A DNA stretch of 44,550 bases from a phage. The stretch lies in the sequence record PZ445417.1; one strand, 5' to 3'. The translations under genes were made by a program, and so were the position numbers. The stretch's first letter is position 1; the number at the start of each line of letters is the position of its first letter. This document shows positions 5,240-42,585 of the stretch, in pieces. Below the pieces are notes generated by a model. It worked only from the letters and a program-made list of their open reading frames with translations, made no database searches and was not told the DNA's origin.

Positions 5240-5279
5240 TGCAACCAATATATTGCAACCAATACGCAGATTGCAAGCG
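5240..5279 (-). promoter_or_regulatory. promoter-like region with tandem ATTGGTTGCA motifs
   Basis: On the minus strand: TTGCAA, 18 bp, TATATT, with two ATTGGTTGCA copies, immediately upstream of the RBS of 4453-5217. The leader ATATTGGTTGCACACCAACAA is almost identical to the one at 39388-39410. Confidence 0.45.
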
Positions 5280-21337: not shown

Positions 21338-21370
21338 GTATTACACCGCTCAACCAGGATTGCAACCAAT
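21338..21370 (-). promoter_or_regulatory. sigma70-like promoter embedded in an ATTGGTTGCAA motif
   Basis: On the minus strand: ATTGGTTGCAA (-35 TTGCAA), 16 bp, TAATAC, ending about 30 nt upstream of the lipoprotein start. Confidence 0.45.
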
Positions 21371-24717: not shown

Positions 24718-24747
24718 ACTATAGTGCAACCAACCTATTGGTTGCAA
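24718..24747 (-). promoter_or_regulatory. sigma70-like promoter within a 22-bp palindrome TGCAACCAA-ccta-TTGGTTGCA
   Basis: On the minus strand: TTGCAA, 18 bp, TATAGT. The palindrome spans 24725-24746. Confidence 0.45.
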
Positions 24748-25205: not shown

Positions 25206-25426
25206 TTTAAGCTCTCAATAAGGGTGTATCGGACGCTGCGCGCGGAAAACTTGTTACACACAAGATGCCAACGGGCGGTTATGACAAGCCAGCCGGTAAG
25301 ATCCAGGCCCAGGATATATTCCGGACGTGACACGCGCTTCACACGATTGCGGCGTGGGTCGATGTTATAGTCTCTTTGCATTTGGTCTACTACCGCGGGG
25401 TCGCGGTCAACGATTAAGATATTCAA
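25202..25426 (-). CDS. small hypothetical protein (74 aa)
   Basis: Probable TTG start with a strong AAGGAGA RBS. Overlaps both neighbouring genes, suggesting translational coupling. Confidence 0.35.
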   Translation of the reverse strand: MNILIVDRDPAVVDQMQRDYNIDPRRNRVKRVSRPEYILGLDLTGWLVITARWHLVCNKFSARSVRYTLIESLK

Positions 25427-25892
25427 GGAGTTCTCCTTCGCTCATTATTTCAATTTGTGCGCTGCCGGTTGGTGGCGCTTCGTCAAATATTATCAATTGC
25501 TGGCACTTGTTATTGCTCGGACCGACTTCACCGGTGACAGCGTGTATAAATCTAATCCGCCAGTCCAGAAGAATTATCAGGTTTGCAGTCCTCCGGGCCA
25601 GCCTCGCCCACTTCGTCGACGTGTCCTGATTCAGTAGCATGACAGTCCGGCGACCGTGCGCTGCGCACTCGACCCACGGCAGCGGATCGGAATATGGCGG
25701 ATTGCACCACTTCCACCCTTTCAACTCTGCCCAGTCCACATCAAGCGCGCTGTGCTCTGCCGTGAAGTAACGCGGTAGCAGATGATTGGCATCGCTTGCC
25801 GCCATATCGTAACGGAATCGGTATTTCCGACGAAGCGGTTTAAATAACGCTGGCGGCGTGCGCCAGCTATCTTTTTGCTCACTCTTCTGCAT
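25407..25892 (-). CDS. DNA N6-adenine methyltransferase (phage Dam-like)
   Basis: 161 aa. N-terminal DSWRTPPALF and the catalytic NPPY motif (WCNPPYS) of amino-methyltransferases. Confidence 0.75.
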   Translation of the reverse strand: MQKSEQKDSWRTPPALFKPLRRKYRFRYDMAASDANHLLPRYFTAEHSALDVDWAELKGWKWCNPPYSDPLPWVECAAHGRRTVMLLNQDTSTKWARLARRTANLIILLDWRIRFIHAVTGEVGPSNNKCQQLIIFDEAPPTGSAQIEIMSEGELLEYLNR

Positions 25893-26343
25893 GGTCGGTG
25901 TCTATCGCATACAGGGCGATTTTATTGCCGGTCTTGAGAATGCGTTGCACGCGCTTTGACTCCACAGCACTAAGCGGGCGCGCGTCCGGGTAGAAGCTGC
26001 CATTTGTAGGGTTGCGCCACGCCATAAGCACCAAATCTTTACGGTCAACCTTAGACTGGCGACCCTTCGGTCGCACGTACTCCTCAGCACGTTTACAATG
26101 TTCACGCAAACCATCGGCAGTGATGCGGTTTAGTGCAACGCTGGTGGTGTATCCGGTGCGCTGCATAATCCCCATCAGTTCGAAAAGCAGTACGAAGCGC
26201 TCCGCTAGCTCCTGGCGCACTTTCTTCTCTCCTTCATATAGCGCCTGGTTGGTGTCCGCCAACGCGTTCGCACGTTCTGCCTGCTCGCGGGCTTCTAGGC
26301 ATTGCGCGGCCCAGTAATTTTTCTCTTCTTGTAAAATTTTCAT
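25879..26343 (-). CDS. hypothetical protein (154 aa)
   Basis: ATG with GGAGA RBS. Predicted coiled-coil N-terminus. Confidence 0.5.
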   Translation of the reverse strand: MKILQEEKNYWAAQCLEAREQAERANALADTNQALYEGEKKVRQELAERFVLLFELMGIMQRTGYTTSVALNRITADGLREHCKRAEEYVRPKGRQSKVDRKDLVLMAWRNPTNGSFYPDARPLSAVESKRVQRILKTGNKIALYAIDTDHAEE

Positions 26344-26359
26344 CGTGTTGTCTCCGGGT

Positions 26360-26388
26360 ATTAAAAAGGGCGTCCAAACCGGACACCC
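26360..26388 (-). terminator. terminator-like hairpin plus U5 overlapping the predicted start site of the next promoter
   Basis: Minus-strand RNA: GGGUGUCC-gguuu-GGACGCCC followed by UUUUU, immediately upstream of the RBS of 25879-26343. Confidence 0.45.
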
Positions 26389-26390
26389 TC

Positions 26391-26441
26391 AATATAATGC
26401 AACCAATATGATTATGCAACCAATATGATTATGCAACCAAT
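26391..26441 (-). promoter_or_regulatory. three tandem 17-bp repeats ATTGGTTGCATAATCAT with a promoter-like arrangement
   Basis: Three direct copies at 26398-26441. On the minus strand: TTGCAT (copy 2), 17 bp, TATATT. Confidence 0.5.
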
Positions 26442-26765
26442 TTACGCATAAAAGTTCGGGTCGCGTGCAACGTCTACCAGGTAAAGGTTGCTTATGCGGT
26501 TGCCGTAGTGCCCTGGAGTGCGCTGGCGGCACACAACGGCGAAGCCTGGGGGGATTGTATTGCCCGTCTCAATAATCCACGCCACGCGTGCGCCAGACAG
26601 TGTCTTGCCGTTGTATTCGATACGTGTTCCACCATCGGCGGTGTTGATGTTGCCAATCTTGCAGCCCGTGGACTTCAGACGGATGACTCCGGTTTTGCTG
26701 TCGTAGGTGAATAGCTGGTTAGTCATTGCGACCGAAAAATCGATGGTTTCGTATGTAGCGTTCAT
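26442..26765 (-). CDS. HNH-like (homing-endonuclease-related) domain protein, possibly degenerate
   Basis: 107 aa. The pattern GTRIEYNGKTLSGARVAWII...GHYGNRISNLYLVD resembles HNH_3/NUMOD4-type phage proteins but lacks clear catalytic His residues. Confidence 0.35.
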   Translation of the reverse strand: MNATYETIDFSVAMTNQLFTYDSKTGVIRLKSTGCKIGNINTADGGTRIEYNGKTLSGARVAWIIETGNTIPPGFAVVCRQRTPGHYGNRISNLYLVDVARDPNFYA

Positions 26766-27457
26766 TTTAAATTTTCCTCGTTAACCGCTATCGCGAAGCC
26801 GCGCGGAGTGAGCGACCGGATTAATTTTGTGCGGGCTGATTTGCCTCCGAGGCGACTATACTGTTTCGAGTACCCTTTTTCAACGAAAACAGGTTTCTTC
26901 TCTGGCATACGGAAACCGTTGCCGGTCCATAAGCAGGTCAGCTTCGGATATGAATCGCGGGCGTTGATGTATTCCGGGAAGAGCGGGTGTACGTCATCCT
27001 CCGGCAGATATCCCCCATACTCCCACGGATCAAACGAGTGGTCTGGTTTACGCCACTTGGTGGAAAGTACACTGCGCGGATTCTCAATCATATATGGCAC
27101 TTCAAAGAAGTCACCTAAGTAAGCGGCAATCTTCGCGGTGCGCACCGCCTTAAGCTGAAAGGCGGGGTCTCTAGCACGCTTGCGCGGGAAAGCAGGTGCA
27201 CCGCTCACTGCCAGATCCGTGCATGGAGGAAACGCATATATGATATCAGGCGTACCAAAATCGCCATTCATCGCGCGGTCTACAAAGTCCAGATCGATAA
27301 ACTCATTGCGATACCGGATTCCGCGGCCATAAATCCGGTAGTCAAGGTACGACCCGTGATCGGCTTCGGAGTAGTTGAAGCAATAGCACTTATGCCCCAT
27401 CTCGGCAGCACGCTCAATCATCAAGCCGCTGCCGTCAAACAATGACCAGATTATCAT
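26762..27457 (-). CDS. DNA cytosine-5 methyltransferase-like protein
   Basis: 231 aa. Motif I-like LFDGSGL, motif IV-like FPPCTDLAVSG (PC catalytic dipeptide) and motif VI-like ENP, in the canonical order. Short for a complete C5 methyltransferase. Confidence 0.5.
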   Translation of the reverse strand: MIIWSLFDGSGLMIERAAEMGHKCYCFNYSEADHGSYLDYRIYGRGIRYRNEFIDLDFVDRAMNGDFGTPDIIYAFPPCTDLAVSGAPAFPRKRARDPAFQLKAVRTAKIAAYLGDFFEVPYMIENPRSVLSTKWRKPDHSFDPWEYGGYLPEDDVHPLFPEYINARDSYPKLTCLWTGNGFRMPEKKPVFVEKGYSKQYSRLGGKSARTKLIRSLTPRGFAIAVNEENLK

Positions 27458-28878
27458 TTGCGCGCCTTTTTAGCTTTCATGTATTCCATCAAGTCGTCCT
27501 GAATATCTCGCTTACTGTCGCGACGCTCGGCGACCAATTCGTCCAGTGTGCCGCGCGCCTGGATAATGTAGACGAATACCGGTCGAGGGTGTCCGGCCTG
27601 CATCTGGCGAACCGGCCCGATACGTTCAACGATCTGCGAAAAGTGCTCAAAGTTCCAGGTATCGGAGAAGATTGCCAGGTGATGCCCGCCGTCCTGCAAG
27701 TTAAGGCCGTGGCCTGCCGATGCCGGGTGTGCAAACATGATGGGGATCTCGCCCCTGTTCCACGCTTCCATATCCTTATTGCCCTGCTTACCTTTACCCA
27801 ACGCAACGCCGTGCGGAAATTTCTTCTTAAGACGTGCCAGGTCATGCTTGTACTGATACGCAACGAGCAACGGCGCACCGTTCAACTCCTCCACGATACT
27901 TTCCAGTGCGTCCAGCTTCGCGTCGTGAATCTTCACCCACTCGTCGGTCCGTTCGCCGTCTTCGTCCACCTTATACACAGCGCCGGAAGCAAGCTGAAGG
28001 CACTTGATGGTCTTCGATGCCGCGTTCGCCGCCTCCACCGTTCCGCTTTCCAGTTCGGCAAATAGCTCGCTTTCAAACTGGTCGTAAATCTTGCGGGCTT
28101 TCTTCGGCAGGTCCACAACAACCGGCGTATAGATTGGCTTGTCGCACCCGAAGTATTCAGCCGCGTCAACGGTGAGGGATACATCAGACAGGCGTTGTTG
28201 TATCTCTTTCTCGGAGTTCTTTAGCGGAGCGTGCTGCATAGTGAAGCTGCCAGGCTTAACAGGCTTGCTAATAAACCAGCGATCCGTAAATGCCTTATAG
28301 CTACTGCCGAGGCGTTCGCCACCGTCGACAAACCACGTCTGACCCCATAAGTCTTTCAAGCCATTTGGTGCTGGCGTGCCGGTCAGGTTAATCCAGCGCT
28401 TGACGTGCTTATGTGCAATCGCTGCCAGTGCGCGGGCGCGCTTGCTCCCCTGCTTGCTACGATAGCCTTTCAGCTTAGTCGATTCATCGGCAACAACGAC
28501 CGTAAAGGGCCACGCATCGCCGTAATAGTCAACCAGCCACTCAACCACATCATAGTTAACACAAACCACGTTAGCGTTACTCTCCAGCGCGGCTATGCGG
28601 TCCTTCTCTGGTCCAGTGCCGTCTACGACCAGCAGGGATGAGAACCGCCATTTCTCCTGCTCCGGGGGCCATGTACCGGATGCAACGCGAAGCGGGGCCA
28701 GCACCAGTACGCGGTCCTCATGATGGGACAGGACGCCAGTCTGGAACATTTTATTCAGTGCCCACATGGTTGCGCCGGTTTTACCGGAACCCATTGTCGC
28801 CCAGATATTACATCGCTTATGCTTGAGGATGAACGCGGTAATCAACTTCTGATATTCGCGGCGTCGGAATCGTGCCAT
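27454..28878 (-). CDS. ATP-dependent helicase (DEAD/SNF2-like)
   Basis: Walker A MGSGKTGA, DExx-like VVADESTKL, LTGTP motif. Preferred start is the ATG at 28878 (MARFRR, RBS AAGGCGGA) rather than 28968, which would overlap the upstream gene. Confidence 0.7.
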   Translation of the reverse strand: MARFRRREYQKLITAFILKHKRCNIWATMGSGKTGATMWALNKMFQTGVLSHHEDRVLVLAPLRVASGTWPPEQEKWRFSSLLVVDGTGPEKDRIAALESNANVVCVNYDVVEWLVDYYGDAWPFTVVVADESTKLKGYRSKQGSKRARALAAIAHKHVKRWINLTGTPAPNGLKDLWGQTWFVDGGERLGSSYKAFTDRWFISKPVKPGSFTMQHAPLKNSEKEIQQRLSDVSLTVDAAEYFGCDKPIYTPVVVDLPKKARKIYDQFESELFAELESGTVEAANAASKTIKCLQLASGAVYKVDEDGERTDEWVKIHDAKLDALESIVEELNGAPLLVAYQYKHDLARLKKKFPHGVALGKGKQGNKDMEAWNRGEIPIMFAHPASAGHGLNLQDGGHHLAIFSDTWNFEHFSQIVERIGPVRQMQAGHPRPVFVYIIQARGTLDELVAERRDSKRDIQDDLMEYMKAKKARK

Positions 28879-28882
28879 CTCT

Positions 28883-29106
28883 TTATTCCGCCTTTTTCCA
28901 GACTTCAGTTTCACTGTTCCAGTTCCTTTTTGTGGCGTCGTAGTTGGTGGCGTGTCCGATGTGGACACCAGTAGCCCGGAAGCTCTTAAACTTCTGCCAG
29001 CACACCGTCAACGGCAGCGGGGCATTCATGCCCGCGATAAACCATACGCGATCGCCTGGTTTGCATTCGCCCAGCTTGGTGAGTCGGTAATGTTCTTTCA
29101 TCGTCA
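28883..29106 (-). CDS. hypothetical protein (74 aa)
   Basis: ATG at 29106 with a GGGGGA RBS, inside a longer RBS-less ORF from the track. Confidence 0.4.
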
Positions 29107-29349: not shown

Positions 29350-29383
29350 ACTATACCGCTATGCGACCAATTCAGCAACCAAT
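29350..29383 (-). promoter_or_regulatory. sigma70-like promoter with two ATTGGT(T/C)GC motif copies
   Basis: On the minus strand: ATTGGTTGCTGA-ATTGGTCGCA, -35 TTGCTG, 17 bp, TATAGT. Lies in the 3' end of the VRR-NUC gene, upstream of the zinc-ribbon gene. Confidence 0.4.
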
Positions 29384-36082: not shown

Positions 36083-36115
36083 ATTGGTTGCAGGATAGGT
36101 GTCAACAACTAATTT
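36083..36115 (+). promoter_or_regulatory. rightward early promoter P1 (ATTGGTTGCAG motif)
   Basis: ATTGGTTGCAG (-35 TTGCAG), 16 bp, TAATTT. Confidence 0.45.
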
Positions 36116-38887: not shown

Positions 38888-38962
38888 ATTTTGCGCGCAT
38901 TGGTTGCCGATATGGGAATTCCCATATCGCTAAAAGATTAAATTTTGCGCGCATTGGTTGCC
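38881..38962. repeat. two perfect 28-bp direct repeats flanking a perfect 22-bp palindrome
   Basis: AGATTAAATTTTGCGCGCATTGGTTGCC at 38881-38908 and 38935-38962. Palindrome CGATATGGGAATTCCCATATCG at 38908-38929. Each repeat contains ATTGGTTGCC. Confidence 0.8.
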
Positions 38963-39046
38963 ATTTTGGGCGTTTTTAACTGGTCGTATTGGTTGCCGTG
39001 TAGTGTAAATATAATGAATAGTTATGCAATAAAACTGCATAAAGTA

Positions 39047-39204
39047 AGCGGGACAAAAAGCGGGACAAACAAGGGGCGGGACAAAGCGGGACAGCACCCC
39101 TGTCCCGCCCCGGATGACGCGGCCTGGAGAGGAGCGGGACAGCGGGACAGCACCCCAGTCTTTCAGACTAGACGGGGGTCAACGGCCCCCCTCGTCTGAG
39201 ACTG
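39047..39204. repeat. non-coding repeat element, copy 2 (CGGGACA iterons plus conserved hairpin)
   Basis: Six CGGGACA copies, a GCGGGACAG-cacccc-TGTCCCGCC dyad, and a hairpin at 39156-39204 that differs from copy 1 only in its loop. Confidence 0.7.
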
Positions 39205-39360
39205 AATAAAATCCGGGAATTGCAAAAATACACGGCAGCATGACGCGAAGTGCGGTCGCGGATGAACTAGGCAACCAATGCTAGTTGCATTATGCTGAGT
39301 GAAAAATGCAGTTTGCAGTCACAGCAGATAGCGATCAACTTTTTCATGCGCGTGATTAAT

Positions 39361-39401
39361 ATTGGTTGCATCCGCCCTGGCACCCTGCTATATTGGTTGC
39401 A
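39361..39401 (+). promoter_or_regulatory. sigma70-like promoter with two ATTGGTTGCA copies
   Basis: ATTGGTTGCAT (-35 TTGCAT), 17 bp, TATATT, then a leader GGTTGCACACCAACAAGAGGAC nearly identical to the one upstream of 4453-5217. Confidence 0.5.
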
Positions 39402-39737: not shown

Positions 39738-40013
39738 ATGAGCCGTAGGCGAGCTAAACAGCTTTCGTGGAGCATACCGCTGCATTGCATACGAATATGG
39801 GCTGAGAATGCGAATGCGGGGGATTCTGTATTCTGGTGTTATCGCGATGACGTTAAGCCGTTGACGCAGACTCTCTACCTGCACCAGTTCGCAGCACAAC
39901 ACGATTTCAGGGTGCGGACTTCCTTGCAACCAATGGGGATCCGTATTACATTACGCCGAAAGCCTGCCGTTGAGCGGGTAGGCAAACACTGGAGACTGAG
40001 CAAATGTTACTAG
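39738..40013 (+). CDS. hypothetical protein (91 aa)
   Basis: ATG ORF, basic, closely following the previous gene. Confidence 0.45.
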   Translation: MSRRRAKQLSWSIPLHCIRIWAENANAGDSVFWCYRDDVKPLTQTLYLHQFAAQHDFRVRTSLQPMGIRITLRRKPAVERVGKHWRLSKCY

Positions 40014-42524: not shown

Positions 42525-42585
42525 CTTGACTTGCAACCAACATAGACGCCATACTGCGACCAATCAACAAGAGGAGTATTACACT

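Follow-up and report, generated by a model that had tools for sequence, protein, structure and literature searches.

A conserved DNA-modification segment in the replication block of Dhillonvirus, with a short Dcm-like cytosine methyltransferase and a gp31-like protein of probable HNH descent

The 44,550-bp sequence of record PZ445417.1 (here called the window, meaning the whole stretch of DNA that was analysed) represents the whole genome of a Dhillonvirus, a member of the HK578-like group of Escherichia coli siphoviruses. It carries a Dam-type adenine methyltransferase gene, a short Dcm-like cytosine-5 (C5) methyltransferase gene and a gene for a small HNH-like protein. Taken as a joint reading, the region containing these genes is probably a conserved DNA-modification segment of the Dhillonvirus replication block, made up of two orphan methyltransferases and a domesticated protein derived from an HNH endonuclease. 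The proposed segment would run from an SNF2 helicase through the short Dcm, a gp31-like protein, a terminator and a protein of 154 amino acids (aa) to Dam.

The cluster is already known: it is annotated in more than 100 GenBank genomes and is an ordinary segment of Dhillonvirus. The 4-kb stretch around it showed 92 to 93.5% DNA identity to phages Zumzum, AV129, Zar3M, mckay, Oekolampad (Bas18 of BASEL), Sodalis phage SO-1 and about 150 others, and the records of these relatives annotate the same genes. In Oekolampad, for instance, they appear as "Dam-like N6-adenine methyltransferase", "putative homing endonuclease", "Dcm-like C5 cytosine methyltransferase" and "DNA helicase". Diverged metagenomic contigs, too, preserved the order helicase, Dcm, gp31-like protein, protein of about 150 aa and Dam, and in them the gp31-like protein was 57 to 58% identical to that of the window. 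The open reading frames (ORFs) described in a first-pass annotation, made from the sequence alone, were all recovered on the minus strand at the same positions, and the DNA-modification cluster that it had proposed was borne out as a conserved segment of the replication, early-type, gene block.

The C5 methyltransferase gene (26762-27457, minus strand) encodes a protein of 231 aa. Profile searches, which the first-pass annotation had put forward as a check, matched this protein to PHROG 757 over residues 1 to 229 (E = 2e-82). The C5 motifs I, IV and VI that had been read from the sequence are present in that order, as LFDGSG (residues 6 to 11), FPPC (residues 76 to 79, within FPPCTD and including Cys79) and IENP (residues 124 to 127, including Glu125), respectively. 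In an alignment of 61 diverse homologues, Cys79, Gly86, Glu125, Pro127, Pro144, Tyr170, Lys172, Thr174, Trp177 and Pro185 were invariant, Asn126 was nearly so, and motif I was relaxed to LFDxxG across the family. This family, hereafter the short Dcm family, comprises 2,889 clusters at 90% identity and 823 at 50% identity, with members in 1,479 phage records, and is found in Dhillonvirus, Drexlerviridae, Klebsiella siphoviruses, rV5-like phages and some T4-like phages. Its members are nearly all 210 to 260 aa long. Since a length of about 230 aa is the norm for this large family, the protein of the window is not truncated; it is a complete, genuine and unusually short C5 methylase, and not a fragment. 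M.HhaI and M.HaeIII are approximately 100 residues longer, and to our knowledge the members of the short Dcm family may rank with the smallest known C5 DNA methylases.

The AlphaFold2 model of the 231-aa protein was complete and confident, with a predicted local distance difference test score (pLDDT) of 93.8 and a predicted template modelling score (pTM) of 0.91. A Foldseek search with this model yielded 54 matches in the PDB at an E value of ≤0.001, and the 50 matches listed were all C5 DNA methylases. The catalytic domains of DNMT3A and DNMT3B led the matches (E values of ∼6e-6, probability 1.00), and the prophage CP-933R methylase (3g7u), DIM2 and DNMT1 were found among the rest (probability 1.00, with E values up to 7e-4). 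The protein shares with the PF00145 enzymes (M.HhaI, M.HaeIII and E. coli Dcm) and with DNMT3A/B a common fold and an equal order of motif I, the Pro-Cys of motif IV, the Glu-Asn-x of motif VI and a C-terminal motif X-like helix, which in this case has the form IRSLTPRGFAxAV and ends the protein. It differs from the PF00145 enzymes in giving no PF00145 match, in the relaxed motif I of its family and in the region of the target recognition domain. The first-pass annotation had judged the protein too short for a normal domain of this kind, and indeed no separate one lies between motifs VIII and IX, where ∼65 residues (∼143 to 205) take its place between the core and the last helices. This segment holds its own invariant residues (Tyr170, Lys172, Thr174, Trp177 and Pro185) and would probably represent a miniature recognition element. 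A split methylase, in which the 231-aa protein would be one subunit and the neighbouring 107-aa protein would supply motifs IX and X, was also considered; it was ruled out by the motif X-like end helix, and the 107-aa protein is HNH-like rather than methylase-like.

Experiments on a homologue bear directly on the activity of the short Dcm. Aligned from end to end, the 231-aa protein shares 54% identity (E = 3e-86) with the Dcm (236 aa) of phage KarlJaspers (Bas06). The KarlJaspers genome has 95.4% identity to that of K42, the phage used in a preprint on retron Ec86, or Eco1 (10.1101/2023.08.16.553469). K42 mutants that escaped Ec86 had the 711-bp dcm gene disrupted, the expression of K42 Dcm triggered the retron, and LC-MS showed that K42 Dcm raised the level of 5-methylcytosine (5mC) on the multicopy single-stranded DNA (msDNA) of Ec86 (10.1101/2023.08.16.553469). 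Expressed by itself from a plasmid, the enzyme was active, and a quadruple mutant, Cys82Ala/Glu128Ala/Lys175Ala/Lys176Ala, was inactive (10.1101/2023.08.16.553469). The retron mechanism is treated as accepted in a later paper (PMC12916289).

The residue numbers of the K42 mutant fit the Bas06 protein exactly, and the counterparts in the window are Cys79, Glu125, Lys172 and Leu173, respectively. The first three are invariant in the 61 homologues, while Leu173, the equivalent of Lys176, occupies a position that is not conserved in the family. The two proteins are thus alike in their full-length homology and in their length (231 versus 236 aa), and each is encoded by a stand-alone phage gene in a replication or early region. 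They differ in this Lys176 (Leu173 here) and in the phages that carry them, Drexlerviridae in one case and Dhillonvirus in the other; unlike the gene of the window, the Drexlerviridae dcm gene has no coupled gp31-like gene downstream. Judging from its family and from the experiments with this homologue, the 231-aa protein would be expected to form 5mC in DNA.

The second methyltransferase gene (25407-25892, minus strand) encodes a protein of 161 aa with a match to PF05869 far above the threshold (E = 3.9e-35; 121.5 bits versus a cutoff of 28.1) and a further match to PHROG 111 (E = 2.5e-55). The NPPY catalytic motif, correctly recognized in the first-pass annotation of this Dam-like protein, lies at residues 64 to 67, and the gene is annotated as Dam-like in Oekolampad and other relatives. 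The protein is an ordinary small phage Dam of the PF05869 type, with the small size typical of that family. In one respect it departs from the family, as its score falls below the equivalog cutoff of TIGR01712, phage N-6-adenine methyltransferase (85.6 versus 97.05 bits). We take PF05869/TIGR01712 to be the Dam type of phages T1 and HP1, and a GATC specificity is assumed here from the family.

The gp31-like gene (26442-26765, minus strand) encodes a protein of 107 aa. Its start codon overlaps the stop codon of the C5 methylase gene in a 4-bp ATGA (26762-26765, minus strand), an arrangement of translational coupling that was kept in every relative examined, including those with deletion alleles of dcm. 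The HNH resemblance proposed in the first-pass annotation was upheld by a match to PHROG 99, "HNH endonuclease" (E = 3e-16, residues 9 to 99). The match to Pfam HNH_3 was below the threshold (13 versus 24.8 bits) and covered only positions 5 to 21 of the 46 in the profile, before its catalytic half; similarly weak HNH_3 matches were obtained for 4 of 7 members of the 107-aa family. This family is tiny (12 clusters) and confined to Dhillonvirus-like phages and the Edwardsiella Eiauvirus. The gene is a core gene of both groups and is not sporadic: each of the 160 phage records with this gene encodes the protein at its full length, and in all 156 matching Dhillonvirus records the gene was full length and at the same locus.

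The canonical catalytic Asp-His pair is missing from the 107-aa family, its place being taken by Val78-Cys79 in the window, by Leu in six members and by Arg-Cys in the Eiauvirus homologue. The statement of the first-pass annotation that obvious catalytic histidines are lacking therefore holds for the canonical position, but it overlooked the invariant His86 of a Gly-His-Tyr. The residues invariant in the family are Gly85-His86-Tyr87, Arg90, Asn93-Leu94 and Asp98, and Gly85-His86 lies 7 residues beyond Val78-Cys79. A Foldseek search of the PDB with the moderate-quality model of the protein gave nothing below an E value of 2.5, a comparison of the sequence with PDB chains gave nothing meaningful, and the family profile gave no HNH match in the PDB. 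No alignment of the family to I-HmuI was obtained with hhalign, a weak negative, as the I-HmuI sequence used was provisional. Taken together, the sequence comparisons support the view that the protein descends from an endonuclease of the I-HmuI/HNH_3 type. It differs from the free-standing homing endonucleases of this type (PHROG 99) in lacking the Asp-His pair and in ending at residue 107 without a NUMOD3 or helix-turn-helix tail. Moreover, those endonucleases are sporadic selfish elements, whereas the 107-aa gene is fixed, belongs to the core genes and evolves under purifying selection. Since a fixed, constrained core gene is unlike the usual selfish homing endonuclease, domestication is favoured, and the protein is most likely a nuclease-dead DNA-binding protein whose function would be independent of Dcm.

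Three other explanations were weighed. The first-pass annotation had suggested that some members of the cluster might be decaying, and both the short C5-like and the HNH-like genes could be viewed as remnants, pseudogenes in the making, as both are shorter than their canonical families and neither reaches a Pfam threshold. The selection data refuted this notion. The ratio of nonsynonymous to synonymous substitutions (dN/dS) was 0.035 for the C5 methylase gene, 0.059 for the dam gene (nine Dhillonvirus genomes) and 0.19 for the 154-aa gene, and the ratio of nonsynonymous to synonymous polymorphism (pN/pS) was 0.108 for the 107-aa gene, a pooled value with partly saturated synonymous sites. All four genes are under purifying selection, with values of 0.035 to 0.19, and are well maintained. 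The lengths of the two proteins were constant across some 150 genomes and diverged contigs, with the 107-aa protein intact in every record and the C5 methylase at the length normal for its family; the C5 methylase model was confident and complete, and its homologue is enzymatically active. Decay is consequently hardly credible. Less remote, though still unlikely in our judgment, is that the 107-aa protein still acts as a free-standing HNH nuclease or nickase, in homing or in the exclusion of competitors, by means of a rearranged site in which Gly85-His86 stands for Asp-His, together with Asn93 and Asp98 or Asn104. Such a site would have Gly in place of the metal-binding Asp beside the His, and a His-to-Asn spacing of 7 residues versus 12 in I-HmuI (as counted on the provisional sequence). 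The protein has no C-terminal DNA-binding modules, the Pfam HNH_3 match ends before the catalytic half of the profile, and the gene is fixed at one locus in essentially every Dhillonvirus, while homing endonucleases are usually sporadic.

The third explanation makes the 107-aa protein a DNA-targeting or regulatory partner that gives the short C5 methylase its sequence recognition, and we consider it improbable. It would speak for such a partnership that all relatives preserve the 4-bp translational coupling and that in Edwardsiella phage eiAU-183 a 107-aa homologue again adjoins a C5 methylase, in that case of a different type (PF00145). There, a homologue of 151 aa, ∼40% identical and with a weak I-HmuI NUMOD-like match at its N terminus, lies between a helicase gene and the gene for a PF00145 C5 methylase of 330 aa, with a PF05869 dam gene after it (L006:852-4382). 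The hhalign comparison of the short Dcm family with this PF00145 methylase found no significant similarity, and the two cytosine methylases found beside gp31-like genes in these two phage genera are therefore not demonstrably of the same type. In the broader form of this idea, the protein would be an exapted, nuclease-dead DNA-binding module of the I-HmuI type that works with phage cytosine methylases and might steer or gate a methylase without a target recognition domain, a reading to which we likewise give little credence. The eiAU-183 neighbourhood is equally explained by shared ancestry of the replication gene block, the short Dcm family is about 10 times more widespread than the 107-aa family (1,479 versus 160 phage records), and the K42 homologue worked on its own when expressed from a plasmid.

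Natural deletions of dcm also tell against the partnership, as the 107-aa gene stays intact and coupled where the catalytic core of Dcm has been removed. Among the 153 Dhillonvirus records with a match to the methylase gene, 6 had partial dcm alleles. In vB_EcoS_PS2 (L013:1765-2094), residues 50 to 167 of Dcm are deleted in frame, and in Teewinot (L014:1178-1363) and Shigella phage 1b (L015:1178-1363) an in-frame deletion of residues 12 to 181 leaves an ORF of 61 aa; the metagenomic variants P0004, P0012 and P0119 showed other in-frame deletions. The alleles of PS2, Teewinot and Shigella phage 1b lost the catalytic core and kept both 4-bp overlaps together with the intact 107-aa gene, which suggests that the 107-aa protein has a function for which Dcm is not needed and that translational coupling is probably required for its expression. 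The deletions also suggest that Dcm is dispensable and sometimes selected against, and they fit a picture of repeated escape from Dcm- or 5mC-sensing defences.

Several points weigh against reading the region as a modification segment with a domesticated HNH relic. For the short Dcm, Pfam and NCBIfam gave no match, PF00145 not appearing even at an E value of ≤1, and the family profile matched M.HaeIII in the PDB with an E value of only 0.35. The alignment of this profile with motifs I to IV of M.HaeIII was in register, though not significant, and precomputed PF00145 matches exist for a few members of the short Dcm family; the comparison of the 231-aa sequence itself with PDB chains gave nothing meaningful. 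The CCWGG target of K42 Dcm was assumed from the host Dcm and was mutated only in the msDNA (10.1101/2023.08.16.553469). As for the 107-aa protein, the invariant His86 leaves room for a non-canonical active site, and the AlphaFold2 model was moderate (pLDDT of 73) and poor exactly at residues 82 to 90; it was built with only 6 close sequences, which limits it. The literature search found no methylation data for this phage or any Dhillonvirus, and in the BASEL paper Dhillonvirus serves as the less restriction-resistant comparison group, which makes a broad anti-restriction role doubtful.

If the modification segment is nevertheless read as we favour, Dam and the short Dcm would act as minimal orphan methyltransferases that use S-adenosylmethionine to methylate adenine at N6 and cytosine at C5 after replication. 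The C5 enzyme would combine a core, with Cys79 as the nucleophile and Glu125, with the conserved insert of ∼65 residues in lieu of a classical target recognition domain, an arrangement resembling that of DNMT3-type enzymes. The 107-aa protein would have lost its Asp-His pair and its C-terminal DNA-binding modules before becoming a fixed core gene, translationally coupled to dcm. The benefit of methylation would likely be protection from some restriction enzymes. The presence of Dcm would carry a cost, namely, recognition by retron Eco1/Ec86, which is known for the homologue, and probably methyl-dependent restriction too; this cost would explain the occasional in-frame deletions of dcm.

Phage orphan methylases are conventionally assigned an anti-restriction function, and such a role is plausible here. 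In Drexlerviridae, according to the BASEL paper, restriction resistance was not linked in any simple way to methylase genes. The isolation host of that work is devoid of McrA, McrBC and Mrr, and a cost of 5mC, if any, would therefore have escaped notice. The frequencies of GATC, CCWGG and other palindromes in the window showed no informative depletion, with 161 GATC sites (observed/expected ratio of 0.77) and 151 CCWGG sites. The interpretation given in the first-pass annotation was thus partly supported, with correct protein identities, a mistaken suggestion of decay and an unproven anti-restriction role.

The same annotation had placed these genes in an early operon, and although the early-type block stands, a single operon is uncertain, because a conserved terminator-like hairpin lies between the 107-aa and the 154-aa genes. 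This intrinsic-terminator-like structure (26363-26388, minus strand) has the form GGGTGTCC-GGTTT-GGACGCCC followed by TTTTT. It appeared in both the minimum free energy and the centroid folds, was conserved in 8 relatives and carries a terminator annotation in phages WFI and WF5505; a simple consensus terminator scan did not list it. In Oekolampad (L001:2839-3081), WFI (L008:2205-2447) and EK99P-1 (L009:2205-2447), an extra gene of 243 bp lies between the terminator and the 154-aa gene, and its absence from the window indicates a small variable insertion point within the cluster.

Next to the hairpin, three tandem 17-bp units containing the 10-mer ATTGGTTGCA occupy positions 26398-26441 (minus strand), compared to two such units in eight relatives. 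The 10-mer is repeated throughout the genome: allowing up to one mismatch, 20 matches were found in the window versus 3.5 expected, a number that none of 100 shuffles reached. Further copies lie at 5240-5263, 21361-21370, 24725-24746, 29362-29383, 36083-36092, 38899-39401, 39925-39934 and 42532-42564, and the copies are often paired or tripled, 12 to 17 bp apart, at gene junctions. ATTGGTTGCA probably serves the phage as a promoter or operator motif. Two adjacent units together with TATATT would give a promoter-like site, TTGCAT-N17-TATATT, overlapping the terminator hairpin at its 5' arm.

The fourth gene of the cluster, which the first-pass annotation left unmentioned, lies at 25879-26343 (minus strand), overlaps the start of the dam gene by 14 bp and encodes the 154-aa protein. 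Its dN/dS of 0.19 indicates that the ORF is a real gene. The protein is labelled "DNA ligase" in PHROG 10530, which it matches over its full length, and in GenBank records that include SO-1 gp30, Zumzum and PS2. No Pfam or NCBIfam match was obtained and no KxDG ligase motif was found in its sequence, so the label seems to be a propagated misannotation. At the other end of the cluster, the upstream neighbour of the C5 methylase gene (27454-28968, minus strand) encodes an SNF2-family DNA helicase of 504 aa (PF00176, E = 3e-10; PHROG 62, E = 1e-156), and its stop codon overlaps the start of the methylase gene by 4 bp. The 504 aa correspond to the longest ORF, which starts from GTG, whereas annotated relatives all take a downstream start that gives 474 aa (1,425 bp).

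For genome annotation these results have little consequence, given that the genes are already so labelled in Oekolampad (Bas18) and in many Dhillonvirus records and that the role of the short Dcm family as a retron trigger has been published. The residual interest lies in the recognition sequence of a minimal C5 methylase family and in the role of a fixed, coupled relic of a homing endonuclease. The natural in-frame deletions of dcm offer ready, isogenic-like controls for methylome and defence-sensing experiments on these phages.

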